In this document: positions 1-16,838 of the stretch, one piece after another
How the letters are laid out: every line of letters begins with the position of its first letter
How positions within the stretch are numbered: the first letter of the stretch is position 1
Source: Prevotella sp.
Lineage (GTDB): Bacteria > Bacteroidota > Bacteroidia > Bacteroidales > Dysgonomonadaceae
DNA: 18,278 nucleotides
Direction: 5' to 3'
Assembly (NCBI GenBank): GCA_031285625.1
Contig: JAITVV010000049.1
Span: 1 to 18,278, forward strand
Notes under the pieces: generated by a model
Told to the model about the DNA's origin: nothing
The model's input: the letters and a program-made list of their open reading frames with translations, nothing else
Databases searched by the model: none
Position numbers and translations under genes: made by a program

Positions 1-80
1 CCCAAATCCAGCGGCTGCCGATAACATATTCTGTCTCTTCAATCTCCTTCTTTTGCCTTGCCTCTCTCGGTAAGCGGATG

Positions 81-111
81 CAAAAGTAACGCTTTTTTAT
101 TTACTCGCAAA
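81..111 (-). promoter_or_regulatory. Bacteroidetes sigma-A-type promoter firing leftward out of the window
   Basis: Minus strand reads TTTG (111-108), a 19-nt spacer, then TACTTTTG (88-81). This is a full match to the Bacteroidetes -33 TTTG / -7 TAnnTTTG consensus. Confidence 0.75.
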
Positions 112-293
112 TTGTTTGACGAGAAATTTTCTATATTTTATATTTCATTGCCCGATTCCAGAAAGAATATCGAAGGTAAAACTTTTAGATACAATTATTT
201 ATATTTCCCCTGTTTTTTTGAACTTTTTTATAAACTTTTTTTATCAGACAATGGTTGGACAACAATATTTAATTTATACACTATATCTTTCAA

Positions 294-1836: not shown

Positions 1837-3498
1837 TTAATAAGCTTCGTTGCTATTGCCTGCACATGTCCCGATTCTTTTTACCGTAGTTTCAAAATCA
1901 TCCCGTGCTATTTTTGTTTTGTTTTTCACCTTTGCCCTATAATTGTAGATTGTGTTCACAGAATACCCCAAGAATTTTGCGATCATGGAACTATCCTCTA
2001 CTCCAAGCCTGATGAATGCGAAAATGCGTAATTCTATATTAAGCTCTCCCTTTTTAGGTACGATTTTCTCGTCATCCTGCAATAGGTTATTGAATTCATC
2101 TACAAAGTCGGGGTATATGTGTAAAAATATTTTGTCAAAATTAGAGTATAATTCATTCCTCTCAATTTCTTTCAGGTCGTTTACTCTGGTCAACTTTACC
2201 AACTCGGACATTTGGCCTCCTGAAAGCTTTTTGCTTACCATTTTACGATAATCGTCAAGTTTATCTATATATCCGGAACATAACCCCATAAAATATCCTA
2301 TATACTTTTCTTTAATATGGTTGGCTTCAGCCAAGTCTAGATTTGTTACACTCATCTGTTCGTTCATTTTCTTACGGAGGTCGTTAAGTGAGTTTAACCG
2401 TTCATTTATTTCTTTAATCTTTCTGTTCGTTACGGATTGTTTTCTCATTGACCTGTAGACGAAGATCAGAGCGGAAAGCAACAAGAGTACCAGCACCGCA
2501 ATAAAAAAGAGGAGAAGGCGTAGCTTTTGAATGAGTATGTCATTCTGATTTTGGTAAGATTCATAGATAATACCCTGCCTGTTGAAAATCCCAGCTTTCC
2601 TCAATCTGGAGTTATAGTCATTAGTATTCTCTTGTAAAAAACGGATATATCTATAAGCCCGTTCTATATCACCCTCTTCATATAAAATATTTGCCAGATT
2701 AGATAAGGCGGCATTATCCTTATTCAATGTTTCAATATCTGTCAGTGCCGAAAGAATTAAATTTTTTTTTTGCATAAAAGTATCCCCCAATATCCGATAA
2801 GCCTGAAACCGGTGAAAAGTAACCAATGCATATTTAGATATTCCCTGTTCGGTAAGGCGCAATCGTTTATCATTTATGGCTAATGCTTCCTTCCCTTTGC
2901 CGGCCTGCCTCAATAGGGTTTCTTCAAGCCTGAGATATTCTTCTGATTCAGGATTTATAATGTTACGCAGGGAGTCTTGGTATGCTTCATAGAGTGTTTG
3001 ATACTCTTTTCCTCTTCTTTTGTCCTGAGTGTAAAAAGAGAGACCACTATATAAATACCTATGGCATAAATAATAATCTATCAATTGAAATTTATTTAAT
3101 TTTTGTCTATCAATATTACTTAAGGCATCCGCAGCTTCTTTATATAATCCTAACGATGCGAGTATAGACGACAATTCCATATTTGTCTCATATATTCTTT
3201 CTTTGTCGTTTAATTCAATGGCAATATTCAGGTTTTCATTTAGATAATATATCGCCGAATCAGCCATGTAAGAGTAATATTCCATAGCCAGCTGTCGATT
3301 AATCCAGTACATGTTGTTTAAGGATATATCTTTGTTCAATTTATCTCTTTTGAGAGTATTTAGTTTCTTTTCCTTGAATTCTGTATATTGGTTATGATTT
3401 ACTATCCTTTTATCCAGCACATTGAAGAGCGAATCCAATTCATTGCTAAATAGGAAAGAAGAATACAGGTTGAGGAATAAAAAAAGAAATAGTTTCAT
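1837..3498 (-). CDS. SusR-like transmembrane sensor/transcriptional regulator (DUF6377 family)
   Basis: 553 aa. Signal peptide, helical TPR-like periplasmic region, single TM helix (LLLFFIAVLVLLLLSALIFVY), coiled coil, and C-terminal ELRIFAFIRLG...IAKFLGYSVNTIYNYR HTH characteristic of SusR/DUF6377. Divergent from susC. Confidence 0.9.
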   Translation of the reverse strand: MKLFLFLFLNLYSSFLFSNELDSLFNVLDKRIVNHNQYTEFKEKKLNTLKRDKLNKDISLNNMYWINRQLAMEYYSYMADSAIYYLNENLNIAIELNDKERIYETNMELSSILASLGLYKEAADALSNIDRQKLNKFQLIDYYLCHRYLYSGLSFYTQDKRRGKEYQTLYEAYQDSLRNIINPESEEYLRLEETLLRQAGKGKEALAINDKRLRLTEQGISKYALVTFHRFQAYRILGDTFMQKKNLILSALTDIETLNKDNAALSNLANILYEEGDIERAYRYIRFLQENTNDYNSRLRKAGIFNRQGIIYESYQNQNDILIQKLRLLLFFIAVLVLLLLSALIFVYRSMRKQSVTNRKIKEINERLNSLNDLRKKMNEQMSVTNLDLAEANHIKEKYIGYFMGLCSGYIDKLDDYRKMVSKKLSGGQMSELVKLTRVNDLKEIERNELYSNFDKIFLHIYPDFVDEFNNLLQDDEKIVPKKGELNIELRIFAFIRLGVEDSSMIAKFLGYSVNTIYNYRAKVKNKTKIARDDFETTVKRIGTCAGNSNEAY

Positions 3499-3603
3499 TC
3501 GTGGATGTGACTTTTCTTCTTAGGATTTAGAATATGTGATTAACTTTTATTTTTTCAACAGGAAAACAGAACTTGTCCCGGGCTTATCCTTATAGAAAAC
3601 ATA

Positions 3604-3635
3604 CAAATATACGAATTTACGAAAAATAACATCAA
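3604..3635 (-). promoter_or_regulatory. Putative promoter of the susR-like gene
   Basis: CAAATATA at 3604-3611 reads TATATTTG on the minus strand, with a TTG (CAA 3633-3635) 21 nt upstream. Confidence 0.55.
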
Positions 3636-3713
3636 TCTTGTTCTTTGTAAAATTACTATTTCCTAATATTTCGATGTTTTATGTCTGCACATGCATATGA
3701 TCTGTCAAATAGT

Positions 3714-3821
3714 ATCCACTTTTTTAAATCTATAACTTATTGTTATTGAACTACATTATACTGTTAAAATCCACTATTCCCCCCCCTGAAAATATAAACA
3801 TCTACTTAATACCCATATTTG
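3714..3821 (+). promoter_or_regulatory. Activator-dependent PUL promoter with candidate SusR boxes
   Basis: ATCCACT at 3714-3720 and 3769-3775, ATCTACT at 3800-3806, near-consensus -7 element CATATTTG at 3814-3821, and no consensus -33 TTTG. Confidence 0.5.
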
Positions 3822-3865
3822 TAAAAGTTTGCGAATATTTCATTAACTTAAATTTTTTAATACAC

Positions 3866-6800
3866 ATGAAAAGAAACCTATTTCGAAGGAGAATAGTTCA
3901 CAGTCTCCTTGTGTGTCTCGCCCTTTTATGTTTTGACATAGGCCTATATGCTCAAAATGTGATTACAGTAGAGGGTGTGGTTGCAGATAAGAACACCAAA
4001 GAACCTCTTATCGGAGTGACTGTATCGGAAAAAGGTACTACTAATGGTACGATGACTGATTTAGATGGAAATTTTACATTAAAAGCCAAACAAGGTGCGG
4101 TACTGGTATTCACAAGTATCGGCTATAAACCTGTGGAACATCCGGTTTCTTCCAAAATGAATGTTGTGATGGAAGAGGATTCCAAAATACTGGACGATGT
4201 TGTGGTAGTCGGTTATGGAGTCCAGAAAAAGGTAAACCTTACAGGCGCTATCGCTGCTATGGATGGTTCGGCCATAGCAGCGAAATCTTCATCCGATGTA
4301 CTTTCGGCTATGCAGGGTGAGATGCCGGGTGTTGCCGTATTGAGAAGTAGCGGTAAACCCGGATCGGAAACATCAGGGATGCGTGTGCGTGGTTTTTCGT
4401 CTATAAATAATGTTTCGGCTCTAGTGCTGATCGATGGAGTTGAAGGAGATTTGACATTACTCAACCCTAACGATATTGCTAATATATCCGTGTTGAAAGA
4501 TGCGGCAGCAGCTGCTATTTATGGAGCGCGTGCAGCAGGTGGAGTTGTTTTGGTTACAACAAAGTCCGGACAGGAAGGTAAAACCCGTATTTCATATAAT
4601 GGCTACTTCGCGGCTAATACACCGTCAAACATGCCGGAACGTTTGCCGGCTTGGGAAGAACAAAAATTTATAAACGAATCCCGTATTCAAGCAAATGGAT
4701 CGCCGGAGTGGAATGATGAAATGTCATCATGGGTGGCCAATCCTAACTTTAACTATCGTCCGAATAATACGAACGGGCGTTGGGATTTCTTTCAGTCTAC
4801 AAACTGGATTGCCGAAGGTGTACGTGATTATTCGACTCAGCAAAGCCATGCCGTATCCATCTCGGGAGGAAGTAAAGATATTAATTACCTTATATCCGGG
4901 AACTTCTTTACAAAAGGAGGGATATTGAAATATGGACCGGATAAAAATGAACGTTACAATTTACGCATAAAGCTGGGAGCTAATTTGAATAAATATATGG
5001 AACTGGCTATAAATGCCAGCTATAATGGCAAATTTGTAGAAACAAATCCATATAAAGCAGAGAGTCTCTTGGAGCGTTTGTATCGTGTACGAGGCCGTCA
5101 GCCTATTTTCAATCCGGAAGAAGATATAAATTATGACGAACATCCATATAATGGAGACTTGCAGGTTAATCCGATAGATATCATGAAAAATGGAGGCTTG
5201 AATGAAAACCGTTATGAAGCATACGTTGGAAAAGGAGAGTTGACAATCAAAAATGTGGTAGAGGGGCTTCGTGTTAAATTAAGCGCTTCCCGCCAGGCAG
5301 GTTATTACAATAGTAAGATAACCAAACCTACTATTATTTGGTACGACAGGTTGGGTACAACAGAGCGTTTTTCCGCAAACAAACCGAATTCTTTGGAAAA
5401 AGTAAAAAACTATGATTTTCATGATAATTTCGAAGCATTGGCATATTATGATTTGAAATTTAATAAACATACATTCAATTTATTAGCAGGCAGTACCTAT
5501 GAAAATTATCGGAAAGACGAAATGAAAGGGCTTGCCAAGAACCTTAATGCTAATGATTTTTTTACATTTAACTCATATGATACATCCCTACCTACGAATA
5601 CGGAATTGACCGATAAAGTAGAGACTTGGGCTATGATGTCATATTTCGGACGGTTGAATTATAATTTCAATGACCGATATTTATTTGAAGCTAATATACG
5701 TTATGATGGTAGCTCGCAATTAGCTCCGGATGCGCGTTGGCTTGCTTTTCCGTCCTTATCTGTAGGATGGCGTATAAATGAAGAATCTTGGTTCAATGTT
5801 AATAGTATTGAAAACTTGAAACTACGTGCATCATGGGGACAACTCGGTATTGGTGCAAACATGGGGGATGGCCGTATATACGAATATATGTCATTACTTA
5901 CATCGGGAACATGGTTAGGCAATGGTTATTTCTACGAAAAAACTCTTGCCTCGAAAGAAAAGTCGTGGGAAACTCTCGAAACTACTAATGTGGGGCTCGA
6001 TCTCAATATGCTATCCGGACGTTTGAGTTTTGTAGGAGACTATTATTGGAAGACCAATAATGACATGTTAATTGATTACAATTTACCAAATCTTGTTGGT
6101 GTCGGCGCCCCTAAGGGCAATATCGGACGTTTAAAGACATGGGGATGGGAGATTCAGGTAGGATGGAGAGATAAAATTGGTAAGGTAAGTTACCAAGCCA
6201 GTTTCAATTTAGCCGACAGTCAGAATGAACTGGTTGAACTTAATAATTCTCGTAATATTAGTGCAGGAGCAAAGGATAGGATCGAAGGATACCCTTTGAA
6301 TACCATTTGGGGATATAAGACAGACGGGTATTGGTCGAGCCGTCAGGAATATTTGGATTATAAAGCTGCTAATCCGGGTTATCAGTCATTCAATGATGCG
6401 AAAGTTGGCGCCGGTGATGTAAAGTATGTTGCACAGGGTAAAGCAGATCACACAATAGGCGCAGGTGGAGGGACTCCCGATAATCCCGGAGACCTTGTCT
6501 ATCTAGGCGACTCTAATGGCCGTTATTTATATGGGTTCAATCTTTCGTTACAGTGGAATAACTTCGATTTTTCAATGCTGTGGCAAGGTGTAGCTAAACG
6601 AAAGTTGCTTATAGAAACCAATACTATTGCTCCGTTTCAGGCTACTGCCAATATGCCCTGGACTATACATCGTGATTATTGGACTCCGGAAAATACCGAT
6701 GCATTTTGGCCTCGTCTCTATAATCAGAATACATTTAATTATGAGCCATCTGATAAATGGGTGCAAAATGCAGCCTATATTCGTCTCAAAAATATACAAG

Positions 6801-6985
6801 TAGGTTATAATATACCGGTTAAGAAGACTGTATTAGAGAAAGTGAGGGTTTATTTGTCAGGTGATGATGTTTGGGAACACACAGATCTGCTGAAAGTGTT
6901 TGACCCTGAGGTTGGGAACAAAGCATCTGCCAGTTATTATCCGTTCTTCCGGACGTGGTCTGTTGGAGTGAATGTAACATTTTAA
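3866..6985 (+). CDS. susC: SusC/RagA family TonB-dependent outer-membrane transporter
   Basis: Start reassigned to ATG 3866 (MKRNLF..., signal peptide ending LYA-Q). CarboxypepD_reg-like N-domain, VVVGYGVQKK, plug motif NPNDIANISVLKDAAAAAIYGARAAGGVVLVTTK, and terminal ...GVNVTF. Confidence 0.96.
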   Translation: MKRNLFRRRIVHSLLVCLALLCFDIGLYAQNVITVEGVVADKNTKEPLIGVTVSEKGTTNGTMTDLDGNFTLKAKQGAVLVFTSIGYKPVEHPVSSKMNVVMEEDSKILDDVVVVGYGVQKKVNLTGAIAAMDGSAIAAKSSSDVLSAMQGEMPGVAVLRSSGKPGSETSGMRVRGFSSINNVSALVLIDGVEGDLTLLNPNDIANISVLKDAAAAAIYGARAAGGVVLVTTKSGQEGKTRISYNGYFAANTPSNMPERLPAWEEQKFINESRIQANGSPEWNDEMSSWVANPNFNYRPNNTNGRWDFFQSTNWIAEGVRDYSTQQSHAVSISGGSKDINYLISGNFFTKGGILKYGPDKNERYNLRIKLGANLNKYMELAINASYNGKFVETNPYKAESLLERLYRVRGRQPIFNPEEDINYDEHPYNGDLQVNPIDIMKNGGLNENRYEAYVGKGELTIKNVVEGLRVKLSASRQAGYYNSKITKPTIIWYDRLGTTERFSANKPNSLEKVKNYDFHDNFEALAYYDLKFNKHTFNLLAGSTYENYRKDEMKGLAKNLNANDFFTFNSYDTSLPTNTELTDKVETWAMMSYFGRLNYNFNDRYLFEANIRYDGSSQLAPDARWLAFPSLSVGWRINEESWFNVNSIENLKLRASWGQLGIGANMGDGRIYEYMSLLTSGTWLGNGYFYEKTLASKEKSWETLETTNVGLDLNMLSGRLSFVGDYYWKTNNDMLIDYNLPNLVGVGAPKGNIGRLKTWGWEIQVGWRDKIGKVSYQASFNLADSQNELVELNNSRNISAGAKDRIEGYPLNTIWGYKTDGYWSSRQEYLDYKAANPGYQSFNDAKVGAGDVKYVAQGKADHTIGAGGGTPDNPGDLVYLGDSNGRYLYGFNLSLQWNNFDFSMLWQGVAKRKLLIETNTIAPFQATANMPWTIHRDYWTPENTDAFWPRLYNQNTFNYEPSDKWVQNAAYIRLKNIQVGYNIPVKKTVLEKVRVYLSGDDVWEHTDLLKVFDPEVGNKASASYYPFFRTWSVGVNVTF

Positions 6986-6997
6986 TTGTCGTTAATT

Positions 6998-8683
6998 ATG
7001 AAAAAATTATATCTAATAATAGCTACTGTATTGTGTTTTTCAAGTTGTGACTTGGATAAATTACCGGAAACAGATCTTCCTGATAATAAATTTTGGAAAA
7101 CGGAAAATGATTTACGTGCTGCATGTAATACTATGTATAATCAGTTAGCCGGATTCTATTATGCATCTAATGGTAGTAATAATAGCCGCACATGGCATGA
7201 TAATCGTTCTGATGAATTGGTGGGCACTTCAGCGAACGGTACATCGGCCGGAAACCGGACTGTTCCGTCAACATCCGTTCACGAATGGACAGACCCTTAT
7301 ACTCGTATTTTTGCAGCAAACGATATTATATTGAAGGCTTCAAGAGCCAGGGTTGAGGAGGGTGTATTAAATCGTTATTTGGCAGAAGCATATTTTTTCC
7401 GTGCATACTATTACTTTATGCTGGTAAAGTTCTATGGAGATGTACCTTTGTCTTTGAAAGCTATTCAGGATCCCAATGATCCGGATATGTATATCGGTCG
7501 CACACCTCGTGAGCAGGTTATACAACAATGCTATAAAGATTTGGAGTTTGCCGCGCAATGGTTACCAACGAGAGTTGCCATATCAGATGCAGACTGGGGT
7601 CGTGTAATGCGCTCGAGCGCATTGGGTATGATTGTTCGAATAGGCTTGTATGAAGGGACTTTCTCTAAATACCACGCTTTGGGTGGCGATTATAAAACTC
7701 ATTTGAAAAAGTCGATAGATGCCGCTGAACTGTTGATGAAAGAAGGACATGACCTTTATCCTGATTTCCAAAAATTGTTTTATTTCGATGGAGAAGGTAA
7801 ACAAAACAAGGAAAGCGTATTTGTAAAGATATATGGGCCGAATGGTAATGGAACAACGGTTCATGCACGATCTAGAACTATGGAGAATGGAGTTTCTATA
7901 ACACGCCAAATGATCGATCTATTTTTATATAGAGATGGCTTGCCCCGTGAAAAATCACCGTTGAAAATTGCAAGTGAAACAAGCTTCGACGATGCTTTTA
8001 AAGATAGGGATCCTCGTTTGAAAATGACAGCTTTCTGTTTAGAAGATAAAGATGCATTTAAAGGAGCTTATACTCCATTTGTAAATCAACATGGCAATGG
8101 CTATTCTATCAAAAAAGGTTTTATGTTGAGCGAATGGACTACTGTAAGTAAGGAAACTGTGGATAATATGATTATCCGCTATGCAGAAATACTCATATCT
8201 TATGCCGAAGCATTATATGAATATAATGGATCGATAACAGACGATCAGCTGGAAAAGACAGTAAATAAGCTGCGCAGCAGAGTTGGGCTTACCGTAAAAC
8301 TTACAAATGACTTCGTTACTGCAAATTCATTGAATATGCTGGATGAAATCCGGCGCGAACGTACAGTAGAATTTATAGATGAAGGATTCCGTTATGATGA
8401 TATTATGCGTTGGAAAATTGCAGAGAAAGTATTGCCTGTGGCCATGATTGGAGCCAAATACGTTGAAGGCGAAACAAGCAAAGCCCGTAAAGATTTAGCA
8501 AATCGCCTGACTGATGCTAATGGTAAGTTAAATGGAGTACAAGTCTCGGATCAGGCCGATATGTATGTTATCGAATTAGCCAATACACGCAAGTTCGATG
8601 TTAAGAAAGATTATTTATATCCTGTTCCTTTGAATGAAATATCAATGTCTCGGGAAAATATTATACAAAATCCTAACTGGTAA
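6998..8683 (+). CDS. susD: SusD/RagB family glycan-binding lipoprotein
   Basis: Start ATG 6998 (MKKLYL...FSSC lipobox). Motifs AEAYFFRAYYYFMLVKFYGDVP, RDPRL, IRYAEILISYAEA, IRRERTVEFIDEGFRYDDIMRW, and C-terminal QNPNW. Confidence 0.96.
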   Translation: MKKLYLIIATVLCFSSCDLDKLPETDLPDNKFWKTENDLRAACNTMYNQLAGFYYASNGSNNSRTWHDNRSDELVGTSANGTSAGNRTVPSTSVHEWTDPYTRIFAANDIILKASRARVEEGVLNRYLAEAYFFRAYYYFMLVKFYGDVPLSLKAIQDPNDPDMYIGRTPREQVIQQCYKDLEFAAQWLPTRVAISDADWGRVMRSSALGMIVRIGLYEGTFSKYHALGGDYKTHLKKSIDAAELLMKEGHDLYPDFQKLFYFDGEGKQNKESVFVKIYGPNGNGTTVHARSRTMENGVSITRQMIDLFLYRDGLPREKSPLKIASETSFDDAFKDRDPRLKMTAFCLEDKDAFKGAYTPFVNQHGNGYSIKKGFMLSEWTTVSKETVDNMIIRYAEILISYAEALYEYNGSITDDQLEKTVNKLRSRVGLTVKLTNDFVTANSLNMLDEIRRERTVEFIDEGFRYDDIMRWKIAEKVLPVAMIGAKYVEGETSKARKDLANRLTDANGKLNGVQVSDQADMYVIELANTRKFDVKKDYLYPVPLNEISMSRENIIQNPNW

Positions 8684-8693
8684 AATTTGAATT

Positions 8694-9332
8694 ATGAAAA
8701 AAATATTATACTTATTGATGACAACAGTTCTTTGCTTCACTTTCACAAATTGTAGTGATGATGACTGGAGTGATGGAGACCCGGCAATGGAGCATATTTA
8801 TTATGTAGGATTTGAGAAATGGTTTACTAAAACGGCTAATGATATATCATACAGTGTTAAAGAGCAGATAACTATTCCAATATCCATTCAGTACTATAGC
8901 GAACGTTTACGTTCTTATGATGTTGCTACATATTATTATGTCAGTTCCGAAGGTCTCTCTCTTGGTTCAGACTATCAGGTGGTAGATGATAAAGGTGCGG
9001 TTGTACAACCCGACTCTAAAGGCGCTTTTAGATTAGAATGGCCCCAGTCTAAGAAAGGTGTTCAAGTAGTATATGTGAAAACAATTAATGCGAAACATAT
9101 ATATGATGAAAGTAAACTTGACTTTACGGGTATGACCGAAAAGGAAAAACAAGATGCCATAGCTAAAGAAAAAGAAAGAATCCGTCAGTTGAACTCATTC
9201 AAAGTTTTGACATTCGATCCCGGAGCCGGTGCAATATCTCATCCTGATAATATTGTTAATAGTAAAACAAATGATTACGAGGTGAGATCTTTTACTCAAA
9301 ATTACTTTCAAACAGTATTTATAAGTAAGTAA
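8694..9332 (+). CDS. Uncharacterised surface lipoprotein (SusE-position, probable surface glycan-binding/accessory protein)
   Basis: 212 aa. Lipobox FTNC followed by acidic SDDD resembling the Bacteroidetes lipoprotein export signal. Lies directly after susD. No catalytic motif recognised. Confidence 0.75.
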   Translation: MKKILYLLMTTVLCFTFTNCSDDDWSDGDPAMEHIYYVGFEKWFTKTANDISYSVKEQITIPISIQYYSERLRSYDVATYYYVSSEGLSLGSDYQVVDDKGAVVQPDSKGAFRLEWPQSKKGVQVVYVKTINAKHIYDESKLDFTGMTEKEKQDAIAKEKERIRQLNSFKVLTFDPGAGAISHPDNIVNSKTNDYEVRSFTQNYFQTVFISK

Positions 9333-9345
9333 AAAGAAATATTTG

Positions 9346-9386
9346 AAAGAGGCAGGATTATTCTTTGTATCTTGCCTCTTTTTCTT
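9346..9386 (+). terminator. Intrinsic terminator / stabilising hairpin after susC-susD-lipoprotein
   Basis: AAAGAGGCAGGAT (9346-9358) pairs with ATCTTGCCTCTTT (9369-9381), 13 bp with one G.U, followed by TTCTT. Confidence 0.7.
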
Positions 9387-9478
9387 AATCAATTAAACAA
9401 TGAGGCAGGCTTTTAGAGCTACATTTCTTTTATTTCAGTTTCTGTTTTTTATCTGTAACTGCTTTAACAATAGTAAAT

Positions 9479-9486
9479 TAATTTTG
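9479..9486 (+). promoter_or_regulatory. Possible internal -7 promoter element for the enzyme cluster
   Basis: TAATTTTG is an exact TAnnTTTG, 23 nt before the ATG at 9510. There is no clear -33 element. Confidence 0.4.
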
Positions 9487-9509
9487 TAACATATCTAACC
9501 AACCGGACC

Positions 9510-11819
9510 ATGAAGAAAACGATCTTATTTATCATGCTTTGTTTCACAATATCTGCGAATGCCCAATGGATGTGGAATGCCGATAAAATGAATGAAATAA
9601 AAAGCAACCTGCATTCGTTTACTTATTCTAACGCATACCGGAGCCTTATCGGCGATGCTGAAAAATCCCTGCAGGGAGGAACTTATTCTGTTACCTTTAA
9701 GGAAGGCGTTGCTCCGAGCGGAGATAAACATGATTATGTGAGTCTTAGCCGTTATGTATGGCCCGATCCATCCAAGAAAGACGGGCTTCCGTATATAACC
9801 CGGGACGGAGAGTCAAATCCTGAGTTGGAAAAATATGACCGGAATCCTCTGGGGAATATGGCCGGTTCGGTTACTACGCTGTCGTTGGCATATTATTATA
9901 GTGGAGATGAGCGTTACGCCCGGAAAGCAGTGGATTTGTTGAGGATATGGTTCCTTGATAAAAATACAAAAATGAATCCTCATCTGGCTTATGCTCAGTT
10001 TATACCGGGACAGAATGATAATAAAGGACGCCCTTACGGACTGATCGACACATATTCGTTTGTAGATATGCTCAATGCTGTAAAACTCTTGGAGACATCG
10101 AGTAATTATACATCCAAAGATAGAGACGGACTGCAACAATGGTTCGGCCGGTTCAAAGAATGGTGGCAGACCAGTGAACAGGCGATAGCTGAAAAAAACG
10201 GGAAAAATAATCACGGACTTGCATATGATGTGCAGCTTGTTATGTATTCATTGTTCTCAGGAGATAACGAGACTGCTTTGAAAGTTATTAATACATTTCC
10301 CAAAGTCCGCTTGTTTGACCAGATTATGCCTGATGGCAGCCAGCCTCATGAATTAAGAAGGACACTTGCTTACCACTACTCGGCATATAATCTGTATTTT
10401 ATGGTAGATATGACTGCCATAGCAAAAAATCAGGGAATAGAATTATATAAGATGCAGTCGGCCGATGGCAGGTCGTTATATAAAGCGATTGACTTTCTGT
10501 CTCCATACTTGGGCAAGAGCCAATCTGATTGGCCCTATGAGCAGATCAGTGGGTGGGATGGCGCGTTACAATCCTTATGTAAGGAATTGTACAGAGTGAG
10601 TACGATCGATCCTTCCCGTCAGGATTATTTGCTGTTGTATAAAACTTATAGCAAGCAAGGCTTGTCGGATCGCAACAGGTTGCTTTATGGTGCAACAGAC
10701 CCTGTCGAAGAAGCTTTTACTTTTGCAGGAAAGCAATTCCAGTATGCCTATACATGTATTGACAATGTAATGGCTAAATCAAAAAATACGAAAAAGGCTA
10801 TTCCACGTACTATTAATAAAGATGGAAGTCTCCGTCTGATTGATCCCCGCGATTGGTGTTCCGGCTTCTTTCCGGGTTCACAATGGTTTATGTACGCCTA
10901 TACCAAAGACGATAAATGGAAGGTAGCAGCAGACAAGTACAGTAAGATAATAGAAGAAGAGAAATTCGACCGTACATCTCATGACGTAGGTTTCAAAATA
11001 TTCAGTTCTTATGGGAATGGATATAAACTGACAGGTAATGAGTCTTATAAACAAGTTATAATTGAGGCGGCAAAAACATTGATCAAACGTTTCAGTGCAA
11101 AAACAGGGTTGATACGCTCATGGGATTTCAATCGTAAAGTTTGGCAATATCCTGTTATCATAGACAATATGATGAACCTTGAATTACTGTTCGAAGCCTC
11201 GAAATATACAGGAGACAAGATATATTACGACATTGCAGACAGACATGCTGAAACTACATTGAAAAATCATTTTCGTGACGATTATTCATCGTTCCATGTA
11301 GTGGATTATGATACAATAACAGGAAAAGCACGTCTTAAGCAGACTCATCAGGGCTTTTCAGATCCGTCGGCATGGGCACGCGGGCAGGCATGGGGATTAT
11401 ATGGCTTTACCATGTCATACAGATATACGCAAAAAGCCGAATATCTGAAACAGGCGGAAGGAATAGCCGGTTTTATGTTTACGAACCACAATCTTCCTGA
11501 AGATATGATACCTTATTGGGATTATAACGATACGGCCATACCGAACGCGCCGAGAGATGCTTCCGCCGCCGCAATATCGGCATCGGCATTATACGAATTG
11601 GCTCAGTATGCTCCTGAAAAGAAAGACTTGTATATGAAGTGGGCTGATACTATTTTGGCTAATCTCATCCAATATTACGAGACAAAGGTCGGTACCGACT
11701 ATGGATTTCTGCTTCTTCATTCTACCGGACACAAACCCGGTGGGGATGAAATAGATGTTCCTATCAGCTATGCCGATTATTATTTCTTGGAAGCATTACT
11801 TAGGCGAAATAAATTGTGA
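9510..11819 (+). CDS. Bimodular polysaccharide lyase (PF05426, PL38-like) - GH88 unsaturated glucuronyl hydrolase fusion
   Basis: Signal peptide (ANA-Q). Residues ~18-395 carry HDYVSLSRYVWPDP..GLPYITRDGESNPE, NNHG (N233) and ELRRTLAYHY. Residues ~397-769 carry GH88 motifs DWCSGFFPG, HDVGF, IIDNMMNLELL, WARGQAW, RDASAAAI and YADYYFLEAL. Confidence 0.88.
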   Translation: MKKTILFIMLCFTISANAQWMWNADKMNEIKSNLHSFTYSNAYRSLIGDAEKSLQGGTYSVTFKEGVAPSGDKHDYVSLSRYVWPDPSKKDGLPYITRDGESNPELEKYDRNPLGNMAGSVTTLSLAYYYSGDERYARKAVDLLRIWFLDKNTKMNPHLAYAQFIPGQNDNKGRPYGLIDTYSFVDMLNAVKLLETSSNYTSKDRDGLQQWFGRFKEWWQTSEQAIAEKNGKNNHGLAYDVQLVMYSLFSGDNETALKVINTFPKVRLFDQIMPDGSQPHELRRTLAYHYSAYNLYFMVDMTAIAKNQGIELYKMQSADGRSLYKAIDFLSPYLGKSQSDWPYEQISGWDGALQSLCKELYRVSTIDPSRQDYLLLYKTYSKQGLSDRNRLLYGATDPVEEAFTFAGKQFQYAYTCIDNVMAKSKNTKKAIPRTINKDGSLRLIDPRDWCSGFFPGSQWFMYAYTKDDKWKVAADKYSKIIEEEKFDRTSHDVGFKIFSSYGNGYKLTGNESYKQVIIEAAKTLIKRFSAKTGLIRSWDFNRKVWQYPVIIDNMMNLELLFEASKYTGDKIYYDIADRHAETTLKNHFRDDYSSFHVVDYDTITGKARLKQTHQGFSDPSAWARGQAWGLYGFTMSYRYTQKAEYLKQAEGIAGFMFTNHNLPEDMIPYWDYNDTAIPNAPRDASAAAISASALYELAQYAPEKKDLYMKWADTILANLIQYYETKVGTDYGFLLLHSTGHKPGGDEIDVPISYADYYFLEALLRRNKL

Positions 11820-11834
11820 GATATGTTAGTATTT

Positions 11835-11864
11835 ATCTGCTTAATCTGAAAGGGTTAAGCAGAT
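11835..11864 (+). other. Intergenic RNA hairpin with GAAA tetraloop
   Basis: ATCTGCTTAATCT-GAAA-GGGTTAAGCAGAT forms a 13-bp stem with two G.U pairs. It has no long U tract. Confidence 0.65.
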
Positions 11865-11927
11865 TTCTCGCTGCAATTTTATTTCTATAAACAAAATATT
11901 AAAACTTAAACTTAAATTATTTTTATC

Positions 11928-13154
11928 ATGAAGTATCCGCTTATTATTTGCAGTCTGGTATTTTTATCATTTTTATCATGTAAAAATCAGCAAAGTAATG
12001 AAGATATTGTAAAAAAAGATTTTGATTTTGCTGCGTCACAGTTGGCTTTTGCAATGACAGAAGTAAATAAGGCTCTGGCTGAGGATAGCGCTGCCGCAAG
12101 GAAAATGCTAGTCTCTCCCCGCACAATCGGGCCTGACGGTAAACTGAAGCTGGTTGCTTCCCGCGACTGGTGTTCAGGATTTTTTCCGGGTTCATTATGG
12201 TACATGTACGAGTACACGAAGGATAAAAAATGGGAAGATGCAGCCCGTAAATACACCGGCCCTTTGGAACGTGAAAAGACAAATGGCGGTACGCACGATA
12301 TGGGATTCAAAGTATATTGCAGTTTTGGCAATGGATACCGTCTGACAAATGATGAAAATTATAAGAATATCGTGTTGGAGTCGGCTTATACTCTGATTAC
12401 ACGATACCGGCCGAATGCTAAGATTATCCGTTCATGGGATCATAATAAGGATAAATGGCAATGCCCTGTGATTATAGACAATATGATGAATCTCGAACTA
12501 CTCTTCTGGGCGTTTAAAGAAAGCAAAGATTCAACATTTTACAACATAGCGGTTAATCATGCCCATACTACAATAAAAAATCATTTTCGTGAAGATTACG
12601 GTACATACCATGTGATCGATTACGATACAATCACAGGTGAAGTCCTTAAAAGAAATACGCATCAGGGATTTGCAGACGGGTCTACTTGGGCTAGAGGTGA
12701 AGCTTGGGCTATTTACGGGTATACAATGTGCTACCGTGAAACCAAACTTCCTGAATTTTTGGAGCAGGCAAAGCATGTGGCGAATTTTATATTTACAAAT
12801 GCGAATCTTCCCGAAGACCTTATTCCTTATTGGGACTACAATGCACCGCAAATACCGGACGAACCACGTGATGTTTCGGCTGCGACAGTTACCGCTTCGG
12901 CTTTGTATGAATTAAGTACATACGATACGGAAAATGCCGCGAAATATAAAAAATGGGCTGATACTATACTCGAAAATCTGAGTAAAAACTATATGGCGAA
13001 ACAGGGAGAAGACAGGGGGTTCTTACTATTGCACAGTGTAGGATCCAAGCCCAGTAACTCTGAGGTGGATGTACCTTTGTCTTACGCTGATTATTATTTC
13101 CTTGAAGCATTGTTAAGGAAACAAACTCTCGGACAAACAGGTAAATTGTTTTAA
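11928..13154 (+). CDS. GH88 unsaturated glucuronyl hydrolase, lipoprotein
   Basis: 408 aa. Lipobox FLSC. Motifs DWCSGFFPG, HDMGF, IIDNMMNLELL, WARGEAW and YADYYFLEAL, with both catalytic-Asp motifs present. Confidence 0.92.
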   Translation: MKYPLIICSLVFLSFLSCKNQQSNEDIVKKDFDFAASQLAFAMTEVNKALAEDSAAARKMLVSPRTIGPDGKLKLVASRDWCSGFFPGSLWYMYEYTKDKKWEDAARKYTGPLEREKTNGGTHDMGFKVYCSFGNGYRLTNDENYKNIVLESAYTLITRYRPNAKIIRSWDHNKDKWQCPVIIDNMMNLELLFWAFKESKDSTFYNIAVNHAHTTIKNHFREDYGTYHVIDYDTITGEVLKRNTHQGFADGSTWARGEAWAIYGYTMCYRETKLPEFLEQAKHVANFIFTNANLPEDLIPYWDYNAPQIPDEPRDVSAATVTASALYELSTYDTENAAKYKKWADTILENLSKNYMAKQGEDRGFLLLHSVGSKPSNSEVDVPLSYADYYFLEALLRKQTLGQTGKLF

Positions 13155-13179
13155 TCGGACAAATCTTGAATTTTAGATA

Positions 13180-15648
13180 ATGAACAAATTATTCTGTAAG
13201 ATAATTTCAATCTGTATCTTTTCCGGTATTAGTTTGTCTGTTTTTTCGCAGATAAACTATTCTCAAAAGGTAAGGTTGAATGATGGATGGGAGTTTCTCC
13301 GTCAGGACTTGGGCAGCATATGGGAATCGGTAAGGCCTGTGGCAAACAGAGATGCTCCTGAGGCTGTCCCTTTGTGGTCGAAAGTATCTCTGCCTCATTG
13401 CTTCAATGCGGAAGATGGAGTCGATCCGGACGTCAATTATTACGAAGGGCCGGGTTGGTATCGCACCATGCTGGATGTGAATAATCCCTATACGAACGGA
13501 CGGACTATCCTTGAGTTTGAGGGTGCGGGACAGAAAACGGATGTTTATATATTCACTCAAAAAGTAGGTAGCCATGTCGGTGGATATGATGAGTGGACGG
13601 TGGACATAACGGATGCGATCAGCGATTTTTTGAAGAGTGGGGATGCAAAACGGTTCAACGGTAAAATACCATTATCCGTCCGGTGCGATAATACACGGGA
13701 TACAGAACTCATACCTTCGGATATGTCGGATTTTTCTATCTATGGAGGAATTTACCGTTATCTGAATCTGATTTATACTCCGGCAGTATCTTTTACCGGT
13801 ATTCAGGCAAATGCCTCTGTGGATGAAAAAGGAAAGCTTGGAAATCTTAAGATAAACGGACGTTTTTCTAATAAATCTACTGATGATTCAGCGTCTTTAA
13901 ATATTAAGGTATTCGATCCCAAAGGTAAATTGGTAAAAGAAGAGAATAGGACAATTTCAACCTTTACCGGACAGGAACTTTTATCTGTCGAGATAGCCAA
14001 GCCCTTGTTGTGGTCGCCTCAGTCTCCGAATCTTTATTCTTGTGAACTGACTTTATCATCTTCGTCGGGAACGATGACTTGCAAAGAGGTTTTTGGTTTC
14101 AGATATTTTGAGTTCAAAGACAAGGGGCCGTTTTACCTGAATGGAGGGCGTCTGTTACTCAAGGGCACACATCGTCACGAAGACCATGCGGGTGTTGGTG
14201 CAGCTATGACCGAAGAGCAGATTATACAAGAAATGCGACTGATGAAAGATATGGGAGTGAACTTCATTCGTTTAGGCCATTATCAGCAGTCCCGTATTGT
14301 TCTTGAGCAATGTGACAAGCTCGGTATATTGGTTTGGGAAGAAATTCCTTGGTGCCGTGGTGGACTTGGTGCCGATGTATATAAGGAGCAAGCTCGCAGG
14401 ATGCTGACTAATATGATTGAACAGCATCGCAATCACCTTTCGGTAATTCTATGGGGATTGGGAAACGAAAATGACTGGCCGAACGATTTTCCGGAATTTG
14501 ATAAAGAAAAGATACGTGGTTTCATGAGCGAATTGCATAATCTTTCTCATCGATTGGATAATACACGCCTGACCTGTATCCGCCGTTGCGACTTTTGTAA
14601 AGATATAGTAGATGTATATTCTCCTTCTGTGTGGGCAGGATGGTACAGGGGTTTTTATACTCAGTACAAAGAATTTACCCGGATGGAAATGGAAAAAGTA
14701 AACCATTTCCTTCATGTGGAGTGGGGGGGAGACAGCCATGCCCTGCGCCATGCCGAATACGATTATTCTGCAATAGAAAATAGTACTGATAAGAATGCCG
14801 CTTATGCCGAAATTGCTAAAGCATCGAAAGCAAAACAAGATTGGAGCGAATCATATATAACAGATATTATAGACTGGCATCTGAAGGAACAGGAAACTAT
14901 GCCTTGGCTTACAGGAACAGCTTACTGGCCTTTCAAAGACTTTTCTACACCCTTGCGTCCTACCAACCCTGTACTGTATGTGAATCAAAAAGGAGTAGTC
15001 GGTCGTGATCTCACACTGAAAGAGGTTTATTATGTATTCCAGTCATATTGGACAGAAATACCAATGGTACACATCTACGGACACACATGGCCTACCCGCT
15101 GGGGCAAGGCTGATGGAGAGAAGCTGATAAAGGTTTATTCCAACTGTGAAGAGGTGGAATTATTTCTCAACGGAAAGAGCTTAGGCACGAAGAAACGCAA
15201 CTCGCAGGATTTTCCCGCTGCCGGCCTTCGCTGGAATACTTTGCTTCAACAGGGGAAAAATACCGTGAGAGCTATAGGTACAAATGGAAAGGGGAAAAAA
15301 GTAGCAGTAAGCTTTGAAGACGAAATAACTTTTGAGTACGAAACAAGGCCATTTGGTAAACCTGCCGAAATAAAAGTAACGACATCAAAGGTTGATGATA
15401 ATACTGTATGGGTAGAAGCCGAACTCAGAGATGCTAATGGTATAGTATCTTTGGAGTCATCAGATTTTATTCGGTTCGAGTCTGCCGGTGATGGACAACT
15501 GATAAAGAATCAAGGTACATCTACGGGTTCGGGCAAAGTGCAGGCTTACAATGGTAAAGCTAAAATAAAGTTGGAAAAGAATAAGGGCAAATCGGTTGTA
15601 GCGGTAAAAGTAGATGGATTGAAAACCGTTTTTGTTACTATCGAATAA
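13180..15648 (+). CDS. GH2 glycoside hydrolase, probable beta-glucuronidase/hexuronidase
   Basis: 822 aa. Signal peptide (VFS-Q). GH2 motifs HVGGY, YGGIYR, LWSP..PNLY and GVNFIRLGHY. Acid/base in GNE430ND, nucleophile in VE514WG, NQKG (602-605) uronate-recognition motif, and C-terminal DUF4982-like VYSNCEEVELFLNGKSLG. Confidence 0.88.
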   Translation: MNKLFCKIISICIFSGISLSVFSQINYSQKVRLNDGWEFLRQDLGSIWESVRPVANRDAPEAVPLWSKVSLPHCFNAEDGVDPDVNYYEGPGWYRTMLDVNNPYTNGRTILEFEGAGQKTDVYIFTQKVGSHVGGYDEWTVDITDAISDFLKSGDAKRFNGKIPLSVRCDNTRDTELIPSDMSDFSIYGGIYRYLNLIYTPAVSFTGIQANASVDEKGKLGNLKINGRFSNKSTDDSASLNIKVFDPKGKLVKEENRTISTFTGQELLSVEIAKPLLWSPQSPNLYSCELTLSSSSGTMTCKEVFGFRYFEFKDKGPFYLNGGRLLLKGTHRHEDHAGVGAAMTEEQIIQEMRLMKDMGVNFIRLGHYQQSRIVLEQCDKLGILVWEEIPWCRGGLGADVYKEQARRMLTNMIEQHRNHLSVILWGLGNENDWPNDFPEFDKEKIRGFMSELHNLSHRLDNTRLTCIRRCDFCKDIVDVYSPSVWAGWYRGFYTQYKEFTRMEMEKVNHFLHVEWGGDSHALRHAEYDYSAIENSTDKNAAYAEIAKASKAKQDWSESYITDIIDWHLKEQETMPWLTGTAYWPFKDFSTPLRPTNPVLYVNQKGVVGRDLTLKEVYYVFQSYWTEIPMVHIYGHTWPTRWGKADGEKLIKVYSNCEEVELFLNGKSLGTKKRNSQDFPAAGLRWNTLLQQGKNTVRAIGTNGKGKKVAVSFEDEITFEYETRPFGKPAEIKVTTSKVDDNTVWVEAELRDANGIVSLESSDFIRFESAGDGQLIKNQGTSTGSGKVQAYNGKAKIKLEKNKGKSVVAVKVDGLKTVFVTIE

Positions 15649-15659
15649 AGAATATTGGG

Positions 15660-16838
15660 ATGAAAGTGTTTTTAGGTTATTATATAGTTTTTTTTAGTCT
15701 ATGTGTATTACATGTCTCGTGTAATACACATATTGACTGGAATAAAAATGCGGACATTGTTCTGCATGAAGAAATAAAGCAGAATGCTGCATGGGCATTA
15801 GAACAAACTCCTCAGACAATCACAGATTTCAGATGCGAGCGAAGTGCAGGCGGAGTACATGATTTTTATTCCGAAGGAGATTATTGGTGGCCTGATCCAT
15901 CAAATCCTGATGGACCCTATATAAGAAAAGATGGAGAAACAAATCCTGAAAATTTTATAGCACACAGGCAGGTGATGATTCGTTTTAGCAAGATAATAGG
16001 ATCGTTGGCTTCGGCATATGTTACAACGGGTGATGACAAATATGTACAAGCCGCTTTTAAGCACTTGAATGCATGGTTTGTAGATACTAACACCATGATG
16101 GCTCCCAACCTTCTGTATGCACAGGCTATAAAGGGTGTAAGCTTAGGTAGGGGTGTCGGCATAATAGACACAGTTCATCTGATGGAAGTTGCTCAGGGTG
16201 TTATTTGCATGCAAAACTCCAGATATGCAGACCCTGAAAGTCTGAAAGCGATAAAGAGGTGGTTCTCGGACTATATAGAGTGGCTGACCACTCATAAGAA
16301 TGGAATAGATGAAATGAATGCCAAGAACAATCACGGGACATGCTGGGTGATGCAGGTAGCTTCGTTTGCAAAACTTACAGGAAATGAAAATGTCTTAGAA
16401 CTTTGCCGCAAACGCTATAAAGAAGTCTTATTGCCAACTCAGATGGCTGAGAACGGAAGCTTTCCTCTTGAGTTGGAACGGACAAAACCTTACGGATATG
16501 CACTGTTTAATCTGGATGCAATGGCAACCATATGCCGGATACTGTCTGTCGAAAAAGATAATTTGTGGGAGTATACGGCAGATAAGGGGCAGAACATAAA
16601 GAAGGGTATTGAGTTTATGTATCCGTTCATCAAAGATAAATCAACATGGACTTATCCGCAGGATGTGATGTACTGGAATGATTGGCCTGTGGCACAACCT
16701 GCTCTTATTTTCGGAGCTGTTGCATATAATAACGAATCATATTTTGATCTATGGAAACAGTTGGATCATAATCCGGAGGTAGGTGAAGTGGAGCGAAATT
16801 TGCCAATAAGGAACCCTTTGATATGGATGAGAAATTAA
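15660..16838 (+). CDS. Polysaccharide lyase (PF05426 'alginate lyase' fold, PL38-like), probable lipoprotein
   Basis: 392 aa. Possible lipobox HVSC. Motifs HDFYSEGDYWWPDP..GPYIRKDGETNPE, GRGVGIIDT, NNHG (N223) and ELERTKPYGY. Homologous to the N-domain of 9510-11819. Confidence 0.85.
   Translation: MKVFLGYYIVFFSLCVLHVSCNTHIDWNKNADIVLHEEIKQNAAWALEQTPQTITDFRCERSAGGVHDFYSEGDYWWPDPSNPDGPYIRKDGETNPENFIAHRQVMIRFSKIIGSLASAYVTTGDDKYVQAAFKHLNAWFVDTNTMMAPNLLYAQAIKGVSLGRGVGIIDTVHLMEVAQGVICMQNSRYADPESLKAIKRWFSDYIEWLTTHKNGIDEMNAKNNHGTCWVMQVASFAKLTGNENVLELCRKRYKEVLLPTQMAENGSFPLELERTKPYGYALFNLDAMATICRILSVEKDNLWEYTADKGQNIKKGIEFMYPFIKDKSTWTYPQDVMYWNDWPVAQPALIFGAVAYNNESYFDLWKQLDHNPEVGEVERNLPIRNPLIWMRN

Follow-up and report, generated by a model that had tools for sequence, protein, structure and literature searches.

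A candidate beta-1,4-glucuronan utilization locus with PL38-like lyases, GH88 domains and a GH2 beta-glucuronidase in a Bacteroidales genome

Gene content and boundaries of the locus

This analysis revealed a complete polysaccharide utilization locus (PUL) at positions 1837..16838 of the window, by which we mean the whole 18,278-bp stretch of DNA analysed, itself an entire contig (C17). According to the ORF listing and to Pfam and NCBIfam domain scans covering all 10 ORFs of at least 200 aa, the locus comprises a regulator, SusC, SusD, a small lipoprotein and five catalytic modules. These modules are found in a PL38-GH88 fusion, a separate GH88, a GH2 beta-glucuronidase with an NQKG motif and a second PL38; nothing else catalytic was found among these ORFs. 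The first-pass annotation had described this same set (two PF05426/NNHG lyases, two GH88 domains and one GH2), and the ORF listing, the domain scans and the structure matches bear it out. Its further statement that sulfatase, GH20, PL6, PL7, PL8, PL17 and esterase domains are absent from the window agrees with the Pfam scan of the ORFs of at least 200 aa. Seven more ORFs, of 100-133 aa, lie antisense within larger genes and fall outside the domain scan.

Bacteroidota PULs are recognized by adjacent susC and susD genes accompanied by CAZymes and a regulator, all of which are present here (TIGR04056, 852 bits; PF07980; NF058541, 533 bits). From susC through the last lyase, the genes lie on a single strand with intergenic gaps of 0-177 bp, and the regulator gene is divergent from this operon. 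Genes for an AAA/DUF4143 ATPase and an HTH protein border the locus on either side, so that in this assembly it is whole. A scan for sigma-70 promoters returned 54 sites against 61.3 expected, and a terminator scan returned 8 against 13.9 expected.

The regulator (1837..3498, minus strand, 553 aa) is a SusR-family transmembrane glycan-utilization regulator (NF058541, cut-off 480 bits; DUF6377, 274 bits). The SusC-type TonB-dependent transporter (3740..6985, plus strand) carries CarbopepD_reg_2 and Plug domains. Its true start is probably downstream of the listed TTG, at the methionine of residue 43 (nt 3866, MKRNLF...), which is followed by a signal-like segment. The SusD-family outer-membrane lipoprotein (6986..8683, plus strand; PF07980, 130.6 bits; PF14322, 78.6 bits) has the N-terminus ...CFSSC/DLDK. 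The next gene (8694..9332, plus strand) encodes a 212-aa lipoprotein in which C20 is followed by SDDD, and which had no match in Pfam or NCBIfam. All 10 homologues placed after SusD in related loci retain Cys20. The AlphaFold model of this protein (pLDDT 79.5) is a beta-sandwich, for which fold and atlas searches returned only generic Calx-beta/Ig-like sandwiches, and we consider it a putative surface glycan-binding protein.

The lyases and the GH88 domains

The fusion protein (9510..11819, plus strand) consists of a PL38 lyase (aa ~21-376; PF05426, 285 bits) and a GH88 unsaturated glucuronyl hydrolase (aa ~426-766), with structure matches of 406 bits to 3NFV, 333 bits to 3WIW and 200 bits to BoPL38 (8BDQ). 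The motifs SRYVWPD, AEKNGKNNHG, RRTLAYHY, SHDVGF and VIIDNMMNL can be read in its sequence, the last two of them in the GH88 half, and a signal-peptidase-I type signal (..SANA/Q) points to a periplasmic location. The second lyase (15660..16838, plus strand, 392 aa; PF05426, 296.7 bits) scores 232 bits to 3NFV and 156 bits to BoPL38; its lipoprotein-type signal (HVSC/N) makes it a candidate surface endo-lyase. The two lyase domains both carry NNHG and are only 32% identical to each other.

The lyases were compared with 3NFV, the nearest solved relative, which is uncharacterised, and with BoPL38, an alginate lyase of the same fold family and the sole characterised comparator. In the PDB search at E <= 0.01, both lyase parts matched only 3NFV and BoPL38 chains and no PL5 structure. 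All five catalytic or positioning residues of BoPL38 (Y91, E236, H243, R292 and Y298) are identical in the printed alignment of the second lyase, and the same five are conserved in the fusion as judged from its motifs. The BoPL38 report assigns Y298 and H243 to catalysis and R292, E236 and Y91 to helper roles (bioRxiv 10.1101/2024.12.11.627697). The PL38-like call made earlier is thus sustained against PL5; the scores of the window lyases to BoPL38 are just 156-200 bits. It had also been stated that PL38 contains glucuronan and alginate lyases, which is right (BoPL38 and Aly38A are alginate lyases; PMC13027841 and bioRxiv 10.1101/2024.12.11.627697) but leaves out the hyaluronan and chondroitin lyases. 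Amuc_0778 acts on every GAG tried except heparan sulfate (PMC11790493), RiPL38 breaks down hyaluronan and has weak activity on chondroitin sulfate (PMC13027841), and dermatan is also within the range of the family.

The separate GH88 (11928..13154, plus strand) is preceded by a lipoprotein-type signal (FLSC/K). It alone passed the PF07470 cut-off (39.3 bits), the C-terminal half of the fusion having matched only GH76 in Pfam, and weakly. The separate GH88 scores 369 bits to 3WIW versus 177-186 bits for other solved GH88s. We take 3WIW to be the Pedobacter enzyme that is specific for 1,4-linked heparin-type disaccharides. The aspartates matching D88 and D149 of 1VD5, presumably the two catalytic aspartates of the Bacillus UGL, are conserved in the alignment of the separate GH88.

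The GH2 beta-glucuronidase

The GH2 enzyme (13180..15648, plus strand) has a signal-peptidase-I type signal and comprises N-terminal, middle and TIM domains followed by DUF4982 and a C-terminal Glyco_hydro2_C5 domain. It is of the PmGUS/BuGUS3 type, scoring 1162 bits to PmGUS (6D7J), to which it is ~70% identical, and 1099 bits to BuGUS3 (6D1P). The motifs NQKG, NENDW and VEWGGDSH, which include both Glu motifs, align with those of the two structures. The enzyme lies outside the NCBIfam beta-glucuronidase LacZ4 equivalog NF050095 (292 bits versus a cut-off of 950). With the catalytic residues intact, all five catalytic modules of the locus appear active.

PmGUS was assayed with pNPG and diclofenac glucuronide and showed a kcat of 0.088 per s and a Km of 2.4 mM on pNP-glucuronide, and its active site is filled by a 41-residue loop (PMC6351562). 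Such poor activity on small glucuronides, together with a loop-filled site, implies a different native substrate.

Conservation of the module in other Bacteroidota

GH2, PL38 and GH88 co-occur, across several orders, in 27 of 80 related loci, and the present locus represents a pared-down form of this widespread Bacteroidota module. When 300 genomes were drawn evenly from Bacteroidota and loci were chosen by GH2 alone, 13 GH2-anchored loci were obtained; PL38 was present in eight, GH88 in ten and both in seven. The link between the three enzyme types therefore holds independently of how the loci are picked. Four of these 13 loci encode GH88-GH2 fusions of about 1180 aa, so that two fusion types, PL38-GH88 and GH88-GH2, exist across Bacteroidota. 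Homologues of the PL38-GH88 fusion are found in B. clarus (54% identical) and in B. uniformis (52% identical, from a cluster of 911 member sequences). Among the 80 related loci, the module is adjoined by UxuA in 12 and by a UxuB-like SDR in 11. A "pure" PUL of a same-genus genome (L095) has the order HTCS-GH88-GH2-PL38-SusC-SusD-x-PL38. In other classes, the surroundings of the module resemble an alginate operon, with PL6, a PL17-like gene, SDR, KdgK, GntR and MFS.

This type of locus is already known; close relatives hold BuGUS3-type and BuGUS2-type glucuronidases. We take the PUL type with BuGUS2-like and BuGUS3-like enzymes to be the B. uniformis GUS locus, which was reportedly described by Pellock et al. 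in 2018. In two Bacteroides loci (L006 and L008), it reads SusC-SusD-small lipoprotein-GH2b(CBM57/malectin)-PL38-GH88 fusion-GH2a-SDR-UxuA. In contrast, the window has no CBM57-bearing GH2b and no UxuA/UxuB neighbours, and it possesses a second GH88, a second PL38 and the SusR-family regulator. No assigned substrate for this PUL type was found in the literature examined.

Proposed substrate and route

We see about an even chance that this Bacteroidales PUL is self-contained and serves a beta-1,4-linked GlcA-rich polyuronide, most likely beta-1,4-glucuronan, whether from fungi, bacteria or green algae or in the form of cellouronate. At the surface, the polymer would be held by SusD together with the small CSDDD lipoprotein and cleaved through beta-elimination by the lipoprotein PL38 (15660..16838); the resulting oligomers, each with a 4,5-unsaturated GlcA cap, would be taken in by SusC. 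In the periplasm, the PL38-GH88 fusion would cut further and the GH88 domains would take off the unsaturated cap, which could then enter the KduI/KduD route. Loss of the cap would bare a saturated beta-1,4-GlcA end, from which the GH2 would, as an exo-beta-glucuronidase, release free GlcA for the UxaC/UxuB/UxuA route. The SusR-family regulator would sense an oligosaccharide intermediate and switch the operon on. Downstream routes are encoded in the genome, with UxuA/UxuB on C23 and UxaC/KduI with an SDR on C92. The order lyase, GH88, beta-glucuronidase had been put forward in the first-pass annotation as a complete route for such a homopolymer; the logic fits and is reinforced by synteny, by the two independent fusions and by UxuA/UxuB in relatives.

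The closest precedent is B. luhongzhouii, which can use cellouronate (beta-1,4-glucuronan) for growth as well as glucose (PMC12423752, 2025). Its PL38 enzyme BlCUL1 has an activity of 31.1 U/mg with cellouronate as substrate and of 3.7 U/mg with alginate (~12%); no activity was detected with hyaluronate, chondroitin sulfate C, polygalacturonate, beta-1,3-glucuronan or alpha-1,4-glucuronan (PMC12423752). Growth of B. clarus on cellouronate was weak, and the authors point out that beta-1,4-glucuronan may be rare in nature (PMC12423752). The window lyases would belong to the same CAZy family as BlCUL1 and CUL-I (Brevundimonas sp. SH203), judging from PF05426 and from BoPL38 as best characterised structural match. 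The names of BlCUL1 and CUL-I were absent among the 360 protein-search matches listed, and their accessions were absent from the 30 clusters looked up. BlCUL1 comes from the same phylum. Its product, unsaturated diglucuronate, still has to be processed by another enzyme; GH88 fits that role, as it would take just such a substrate. No PUL and no GH88 or GH2 partner are reported in PMC12423752, where the second step is ascribed to a proposed exo-lyase.

A wider proposal, to which we give somewhat less than an even chance, is that PL38, 3WIW-type GH88 and PmGUS/BuGUS3-type GH2 make up the beta-1,4-glucuronan system of Bacteroidota. Glucuronan oligosaccharides would then be the native, long-missing substrates of the "poor" enzymes PmGUS and BuGUS3, a gut beta-glucuronidase class known mainly from drug-glucuronide assays, and GH88 rather than an exo-lyase would carry out the second step left open by the BlCUL1 study. 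Natural polyglucuronate, from Mucoromycota walls, rhizobial exopolysaccharide and green algae, would be a more widespread nutrient than has been assumed, for Pedobacter in soil as well as for Bacteroides and Dysgonomonas in the gut. If the glucuronan reading of the locus is right, it would offer a clean system in which to define the full route of endo-lyase, GH88 and exo-glucuronidase, a native substrate for the above class of gut enzymes, a marker of whether guts and soils can degrade TEMPO-oxidised cellulose (cellouronate), and a correction to systematic "alginate lyase" mis-annotation. In the literature searched, no PUL linked to glucuronan was found, the nearest case being the single B. 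luhongzhouii lyase with no pathway.

Alternative substrates

The operon could instead perform the uronate steps on a GlcA-containing heteroglycan (such as a glucurono-glucan, a fungal wall polymer, or a bacterial capsule or exopolysaccharide containing ...Glc-beta-1,4-GlcA... units) that glucanases or other GHs encoded elsewhere would finish. We regard this as unlikely, although the surroundings of the module in relatives speak for it. Two genomes of the same genus (G004 and G016) have the fusion within the arrangement SusR-GH30-DUF5125-SusC-SusD-GH2b-fusion-GH5-GH3, the GH2 being BuGUS2-like, and in Pedobacter loci the module is joined by GH10, GH3, GH30 and GH18. The 80 related loci include GH3 in 13, GH30 in nine, GH10 in six and GH5 in five, and some have fucosidases beside PL38 and GH88 (GH29 in nine, GH95 in six). 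The host itself has a pair of GH5 and GH3 genes on C13, along with numerous GH3 genes, and the nearest composite PUL (G007) keeps the CBM57-bearing GH2b. On the other hand, BlCUL1 is specific for the homopolymer (PMC12423752). The operon contains no such GHs, yet has its own SusC/D and regulator, and the genus repeatedly shows "pure" PULs of PL38, GH88 and GH2 (L095, L011, L016 and L019). Given the G004, G016 and Pedobacter loci, the ancestral target may have been a mixed glucan/glucuronan or another heteroglycan.

GAG PULs of Bacteroides (chondroitin/hyaluronan, heparin) rely on PL8, PL12, PL13 or PL15 lyases and sulfatases. The present locus shares with them the sequence of lyase and GH88 within a SusC/D system, but these lyases, sulfatases and hexosaminidase are absent from the window, and the beta-glucuronidase is an integral partner of the module, even fused in relatives. 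It seems improbable to us that the target is an unsulfated GAG-like polymer (hyaluronan, chondroitin or a heparosan-type capsule), from which PL38 would produce unsaturated disaccharides to be split by GH88, with GH2 trimming saturated GlcA ends. A lyase and a GH88 would by themselves be enough for hyaluronan, the lack of sulfatases is consistent with an unsulfated polymer, and the GAG activities of Amuc_0778 and RiPL38 given above point the same way. However, BlCUL1 does not act on hyaluronate or on chondroitin sulfate C (PMC12423752), and the GH88s score 333-369 bits to 3WIW versus about 180 bits to streptococcal chondroitin-type enzymes. PL8 (PF02278) had no match in the genome, which is 94% complete, and the UxuA/UxuB neighbours and GH88-GH2 fusions of relatives stress the release of free GlcA. 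After GH88 action, the new end of a homopolymer would be GlcA, so that the beta-glucuronidase would be immediately useful, whereas that of a GAG would be a hexosamine, for which there is no hexosaminidase at the locus, a point in favour of glucuronan.

To our knowledge, neither beta-glucuronidase nor GH88 has a role on mannuronate or guluronate, and we know of no GH88 or GH2 logic in alginate utilization; B. ovatus CP926 reportedly uses three alginate lyases. An alginate locus, as automated names suggest, is highly improbable here. The Pfam family name points to alginate and, as had been predicted, homologues of the lyases are named "alginate lyase family protein". Further points in favour are the existence of alginate lyases within PL38 (BoPL38, Aly38A), the side activity of BlCUL1 and the alginate-operon-like layout of distant GH2-anchored loci. 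Nevertheless, the components of a canonical alginate locus (PL6/PL7, a PL15/PL17 exo-lyase, KdgF and DEH reductase) were all absent from the window in the domain scan. Genome-wide, PL6 had no match, and neither had PL7, a weak result as the same search matched no control genome either. The neighbours of the module in relatives are glucuronate catabolic genes rather than alginate-specific ones.

Xanthan, gellan, ulvan and arabinogalactan-protein were set aside as targets, given that the locus lacks genes for a mannosidase, a rhamnosidase, a sulfatase or a galactosidase. Elsewhere in the genome, five paralogues of the SusR-family regulator (33-40% identity) and one Hepar_II_III protein, on C64, are encoded.

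Gene content of the locus

The window corresponds to the entire contig C17 (18,278 bp) of a 4.84-Mb genome with 96 contigs and 37% G+C. It is occupied by ten ORFs of at least 200 aa, while seven shorter ORFs (100-133 aa) lie antisense within larger genes. At the left end, an AAA_14/DUF4143 ATPase gene (294-1607, minus strand) is followed by the gene of a SusR-family regulator (1837-3498, minus strand; NF058541, 533 bits for a cut-off of 480; Pfam DUF6377). The plus-strand genes, separated by gaps of 0-177 bp, encode SusC (3740-6985; TIGR04056, 852 bits), SusD (6986-8683), a 212-aa lipoprotein without family match (8694-9332), a fusion protein of 769 aa that joins a PF05426 lyase to a GH88 module (9510-11819), a free GH88 (408 aa, 11928-13154), a GH2 (822 aa, 13180-15648) and a second PF05426 lyase (392 aa, 15660-16838). 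An HTH gene (17043-17738, minus strand) is the last on the contig. As the ORF listing and the Pfam/NCBIfam scan match the modules and coordinates of the first-pass annotation, that inventory is correct; its claim of absences was likewise upheld, since no sulfatase, GH20, PL6, PL7, PL8, PL17 or esterase domain was detected in the window ORFs of at least 200 aa. The listed TTG start of susC (3740-3865) places 42 residues before a methionine and a signal-like segment (MKRNLFRRRIV...), and the true start is probably nt 3866.

Catalytic domains and binding protein

In a search of solved structures (E <= 0.01), both lyase parts matched only 3NFV (406 bits for the fusion, 232 bits for the second lyase) and BoPL38 (8BDQ and complexes; 200 and 156 bits), and PL5 structures were not among the matches, which agrees with the earlier description of both lyases as PL38-like. 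We take 3NFV to be BACOVA_01668, an uncharacterised protein labelled 'alginate lyase'. Between them, the lyase domains share only 32% identity. When aligned, the second lyase has identical residues at Y91, E236, H243, R292 and Y298 of BoPL38, which have been shown to be important (bioRxiv 10.1101/2024.12.11.627697); in the fusion, equivalent motifs were read in the sequence. PF05426 also matches the control genome of B. thetaiotaomicron, for which neither a PL38 candidate nor growth on cellouronate was reported (PMC12423752), so this Pfam family is wider than PL38 and the two cannot be equated.

The GH88 domains of the fusion and of the free enzyme score 333 and 369 bits against 3WIW, about twice their scores against other solved GH88s (175-187 and 177-186 bits, respectively). 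The Asp residues that match the catalytic D88 and D149 of 1VD5 are retained in the alignment. 3WIW is a Pedobacter enzyme whose specificity is for heparin-type disaccharides with a 1,4 linkage. The GH2 shares about 70% identity with 6D7J (1162 bits), with 6D1P close (1099 bits), and its NQKG motif and both Glu motifs line up with those of the two structures, identified as PmGUS and BuGUS3 in bioRxiv 10.64898/2026.06.20.733316. PmGUS is a genuine glucuronidase but a very poor one with small aglycones: its kcat on pNPG is 0.088 per s with a Km of 2.4 mM, and it was slowest among the enzymes assayed on diclofenac glucuronide, its active site being filled by a 41-residue insert (PMC6351562). Judging from their sequences, the lyases, GH88s and GH2 of the window look catalytically active.

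The localisation of these proteins can be predicted from their N-termini, which carry signal-peptidase-I type signals in the fusion and GH2 and lipoprotein-type signals in the free GH88 and second lyase. The 212-aa lipoprotein, whose Cys20 is kept in 10 of 10 homologues encoded downstream of SusD in related loci, is a putative surface glycan-binding protein; it is modelled as a beta-sandwich (pLDDT 79.5) with generic Calx-beta/Ig-like structural neighbours only.

Predicted substrate

We predict, with about an even chance of being right, that the locus acts on a beta-1,4-glucuronan-type substrate. This is favoured by the data on the lyase BlCUL1, the logic of combining GH88 with a glucuronidase, and the homologues of the fusion, which were found by protein search in B. 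clarus and B. uniformis (52-54% identity). Outside evidence, decisive for this reading, comes from a study that tried 13 gut species on cellouronate: growth was strong in B. luhongzhouii, weak in B. clarus and absent in the others, which include B. thetaiotaomicron, B. caccae, P. vulgatus and Akkermansia; the two growers each have three PL38 genes (PMC12423752). The activity of BlCUL1 was 31.1 U/mg with cellouronate as substrate and 3.7 U/mg with alginate, and none was seen with hyaluronate, chondroitin sulfate C, polygalacturonate, curduronate, amylouronate or CMC; its end product is unsaturated diglucuronate, and an additional enzyme was postulated by the authors (PMC12423752). GH88 would be the obvious candidate for this next step. 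Acting on longer oligomers, it would leave saturated beta-1,4-GlcA ends for removal by an exo-glucuronidase, which would explain the tight tie of the glucuronidase to the lyase/GH88 pair. To our knowledge, a glucuronidase is not needed alongside lyase and GH88 in GAG and alginate pathways.

PL38 is polyspecific, comprising the glucuronan lyases CUL-I, TpPL38A and BlCUL1, the alginate lyases BoPL38 and Aly38A, and the GAG lyases Amuc_0778 (PMC11790493) and RiPL38 (PMC13027841). Alginate, for which the second of these groups speaks, is nevertheless a very unlikely substrate, as GH88 and the glucuronidase would have no role there and PL6 was not found in the whole genome; PL7 also gave no match genome-wide, but the same search was silent in control genomes. 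The GAG lyases of the family would be compatible with an unsulfated GAG-like polymer, a possible substrate of rather small probability that is weakened by the specificity of BlCUL1 (PMC12423752), the 3WIW-like GH88 type, the lack of a PL8 match in the genome and the lack of a hexosaminidase gene at the locus. A GlcA-containing heteroglycan, suggested by the glucanase, xylanase-family, chitinase-family or fucosidase genes of related loci, is a serious rival to which we assign a similarly small probability.

The locus works like the Bacteroides locus type encoding BuGUS2-/BuGUS3-like enzymes (loci L006 and L008), of which it is a trimmed, re-assembled member. A full-text literature search, which did yield the paper on BlCUL1, found neither a SusC/D locus nor a combination of PL38 with GH88 and GH2 linked to glucuronan. 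Glucuronan as the substrate is therefore a new, unproven prediction for a known kind of system.

Co-occurrence of PL38, GH88 and GH2

Using the fusion protein as query, 80 public loci were retrieved and analysed by tblastn and clustering of 891 ORFs. A GH2 at least 50% identical to that of the window accompanied PL38 and GH88 in 27 of them, from Dysgonomonas, Bacteroides, Prevotella, Pedobacter, Hymenobacter and Chitinophagaceae; as the query contains PL38 and GH88, only the co-occurrence of GH2 is informative in this set. A search with the GH2 only, in 300 evenly drawn genomes of Bacteroidota (E <= 1e-150), matched 13 genomes besides the window's own, two at 61-68% and 11 at 39-41% identity. 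Within 8.5 kb on either side of these matches, PL38 was present in 8/13, GH88 in 10/13, both in 7/13 and neither in 2/13. In four of the 13 loci, one protein of about 1180 aa contains an N-terminal GH88 followed by the GH2, the architecture being confirmed by Pfam in the two scanned (L103 and L104). Taken with the window's own PL38-GH88 protein, these four link the three activities by gene fusion across lineages. The GH88-GH2 fusions, in which the GH2 is PmGUS-like (L103:7513-11055 in genome G242, L104:8877-12395 in G198, L105 in G262 and L107 in G170) adjoin PL38 genes in an alginate-operon-like layout with PL6, PL17-like, SDR, KdgK, GntR, MFS and T9SS-tailed proteins.

UxuA adjoins the module in 12 of the 80 loci and a UxuB-like dehydrogenase in 11, UxaC and KduI being found in few; in the window's genome, UxuA/UxuB are on contig C23, and UxaC/KduI with a dehydrogenase on C92.

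Origin of the locus within the genus

The composite locus is present in only two of 18 same-genus genomes, G001 (enzymes 91-93% identical to the window at the nucleotide level) and G007 (85%). In G007 (contig C44, L092/L093), the place of the window's 177-bp gap, after the lipoprotein gene and before the fusion, holds an additional BuGUS2-like GH2. At the protein level, the enzymes of G007 are 88-93% identical to those of the window, compared with 58-60% for SusC, 52% for SusD and 29% for the lipoprotein, which suggests that the transport cassette (window 3740-9332) was swapped. Genomes G004 and G016 contain the arrangement SusR-GH30-DUF5125-SusC-SusD-GH2b-[PL38-GH88]-GH5-GH3, GH2b being the BuGUS2-like GH2, apart from the other parts, and G004 alone contains HTCS-GH88-GH2-PL38-SusC-SusD-x-PL38. 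Given that its parts are separate in these genomes, the window PUL is a merger, which has retained all uronate-active enzymes and no glucanases.

Other clusters were seen in the window's genome: a GH2-GH88-GH2 cluster (C59:13719-19244), whose GH88 is 50% identical to that of 11928-13154, and a Hepar_II_III-type lyase gene beside another GH88 homologue (47% identity; C64:24666-26612), which may be a separate uronate locus. L012 (CAZOOY010000001.1), titled 'uncultured Staphylococcus sp.', carries a Bacteroidales-type locus with HTCS, GH105, GH88, GH2, PL38 and GH29, and was probably mislabelled during binning or naming. Finally, window 36-464, where the DUF4143 ATPase gene region has its 3' portion, is 86% identical in DNA to C92:525-950 of the same genome, a copy located at the contig start; contig C17 probably terminates in repeated sequence.
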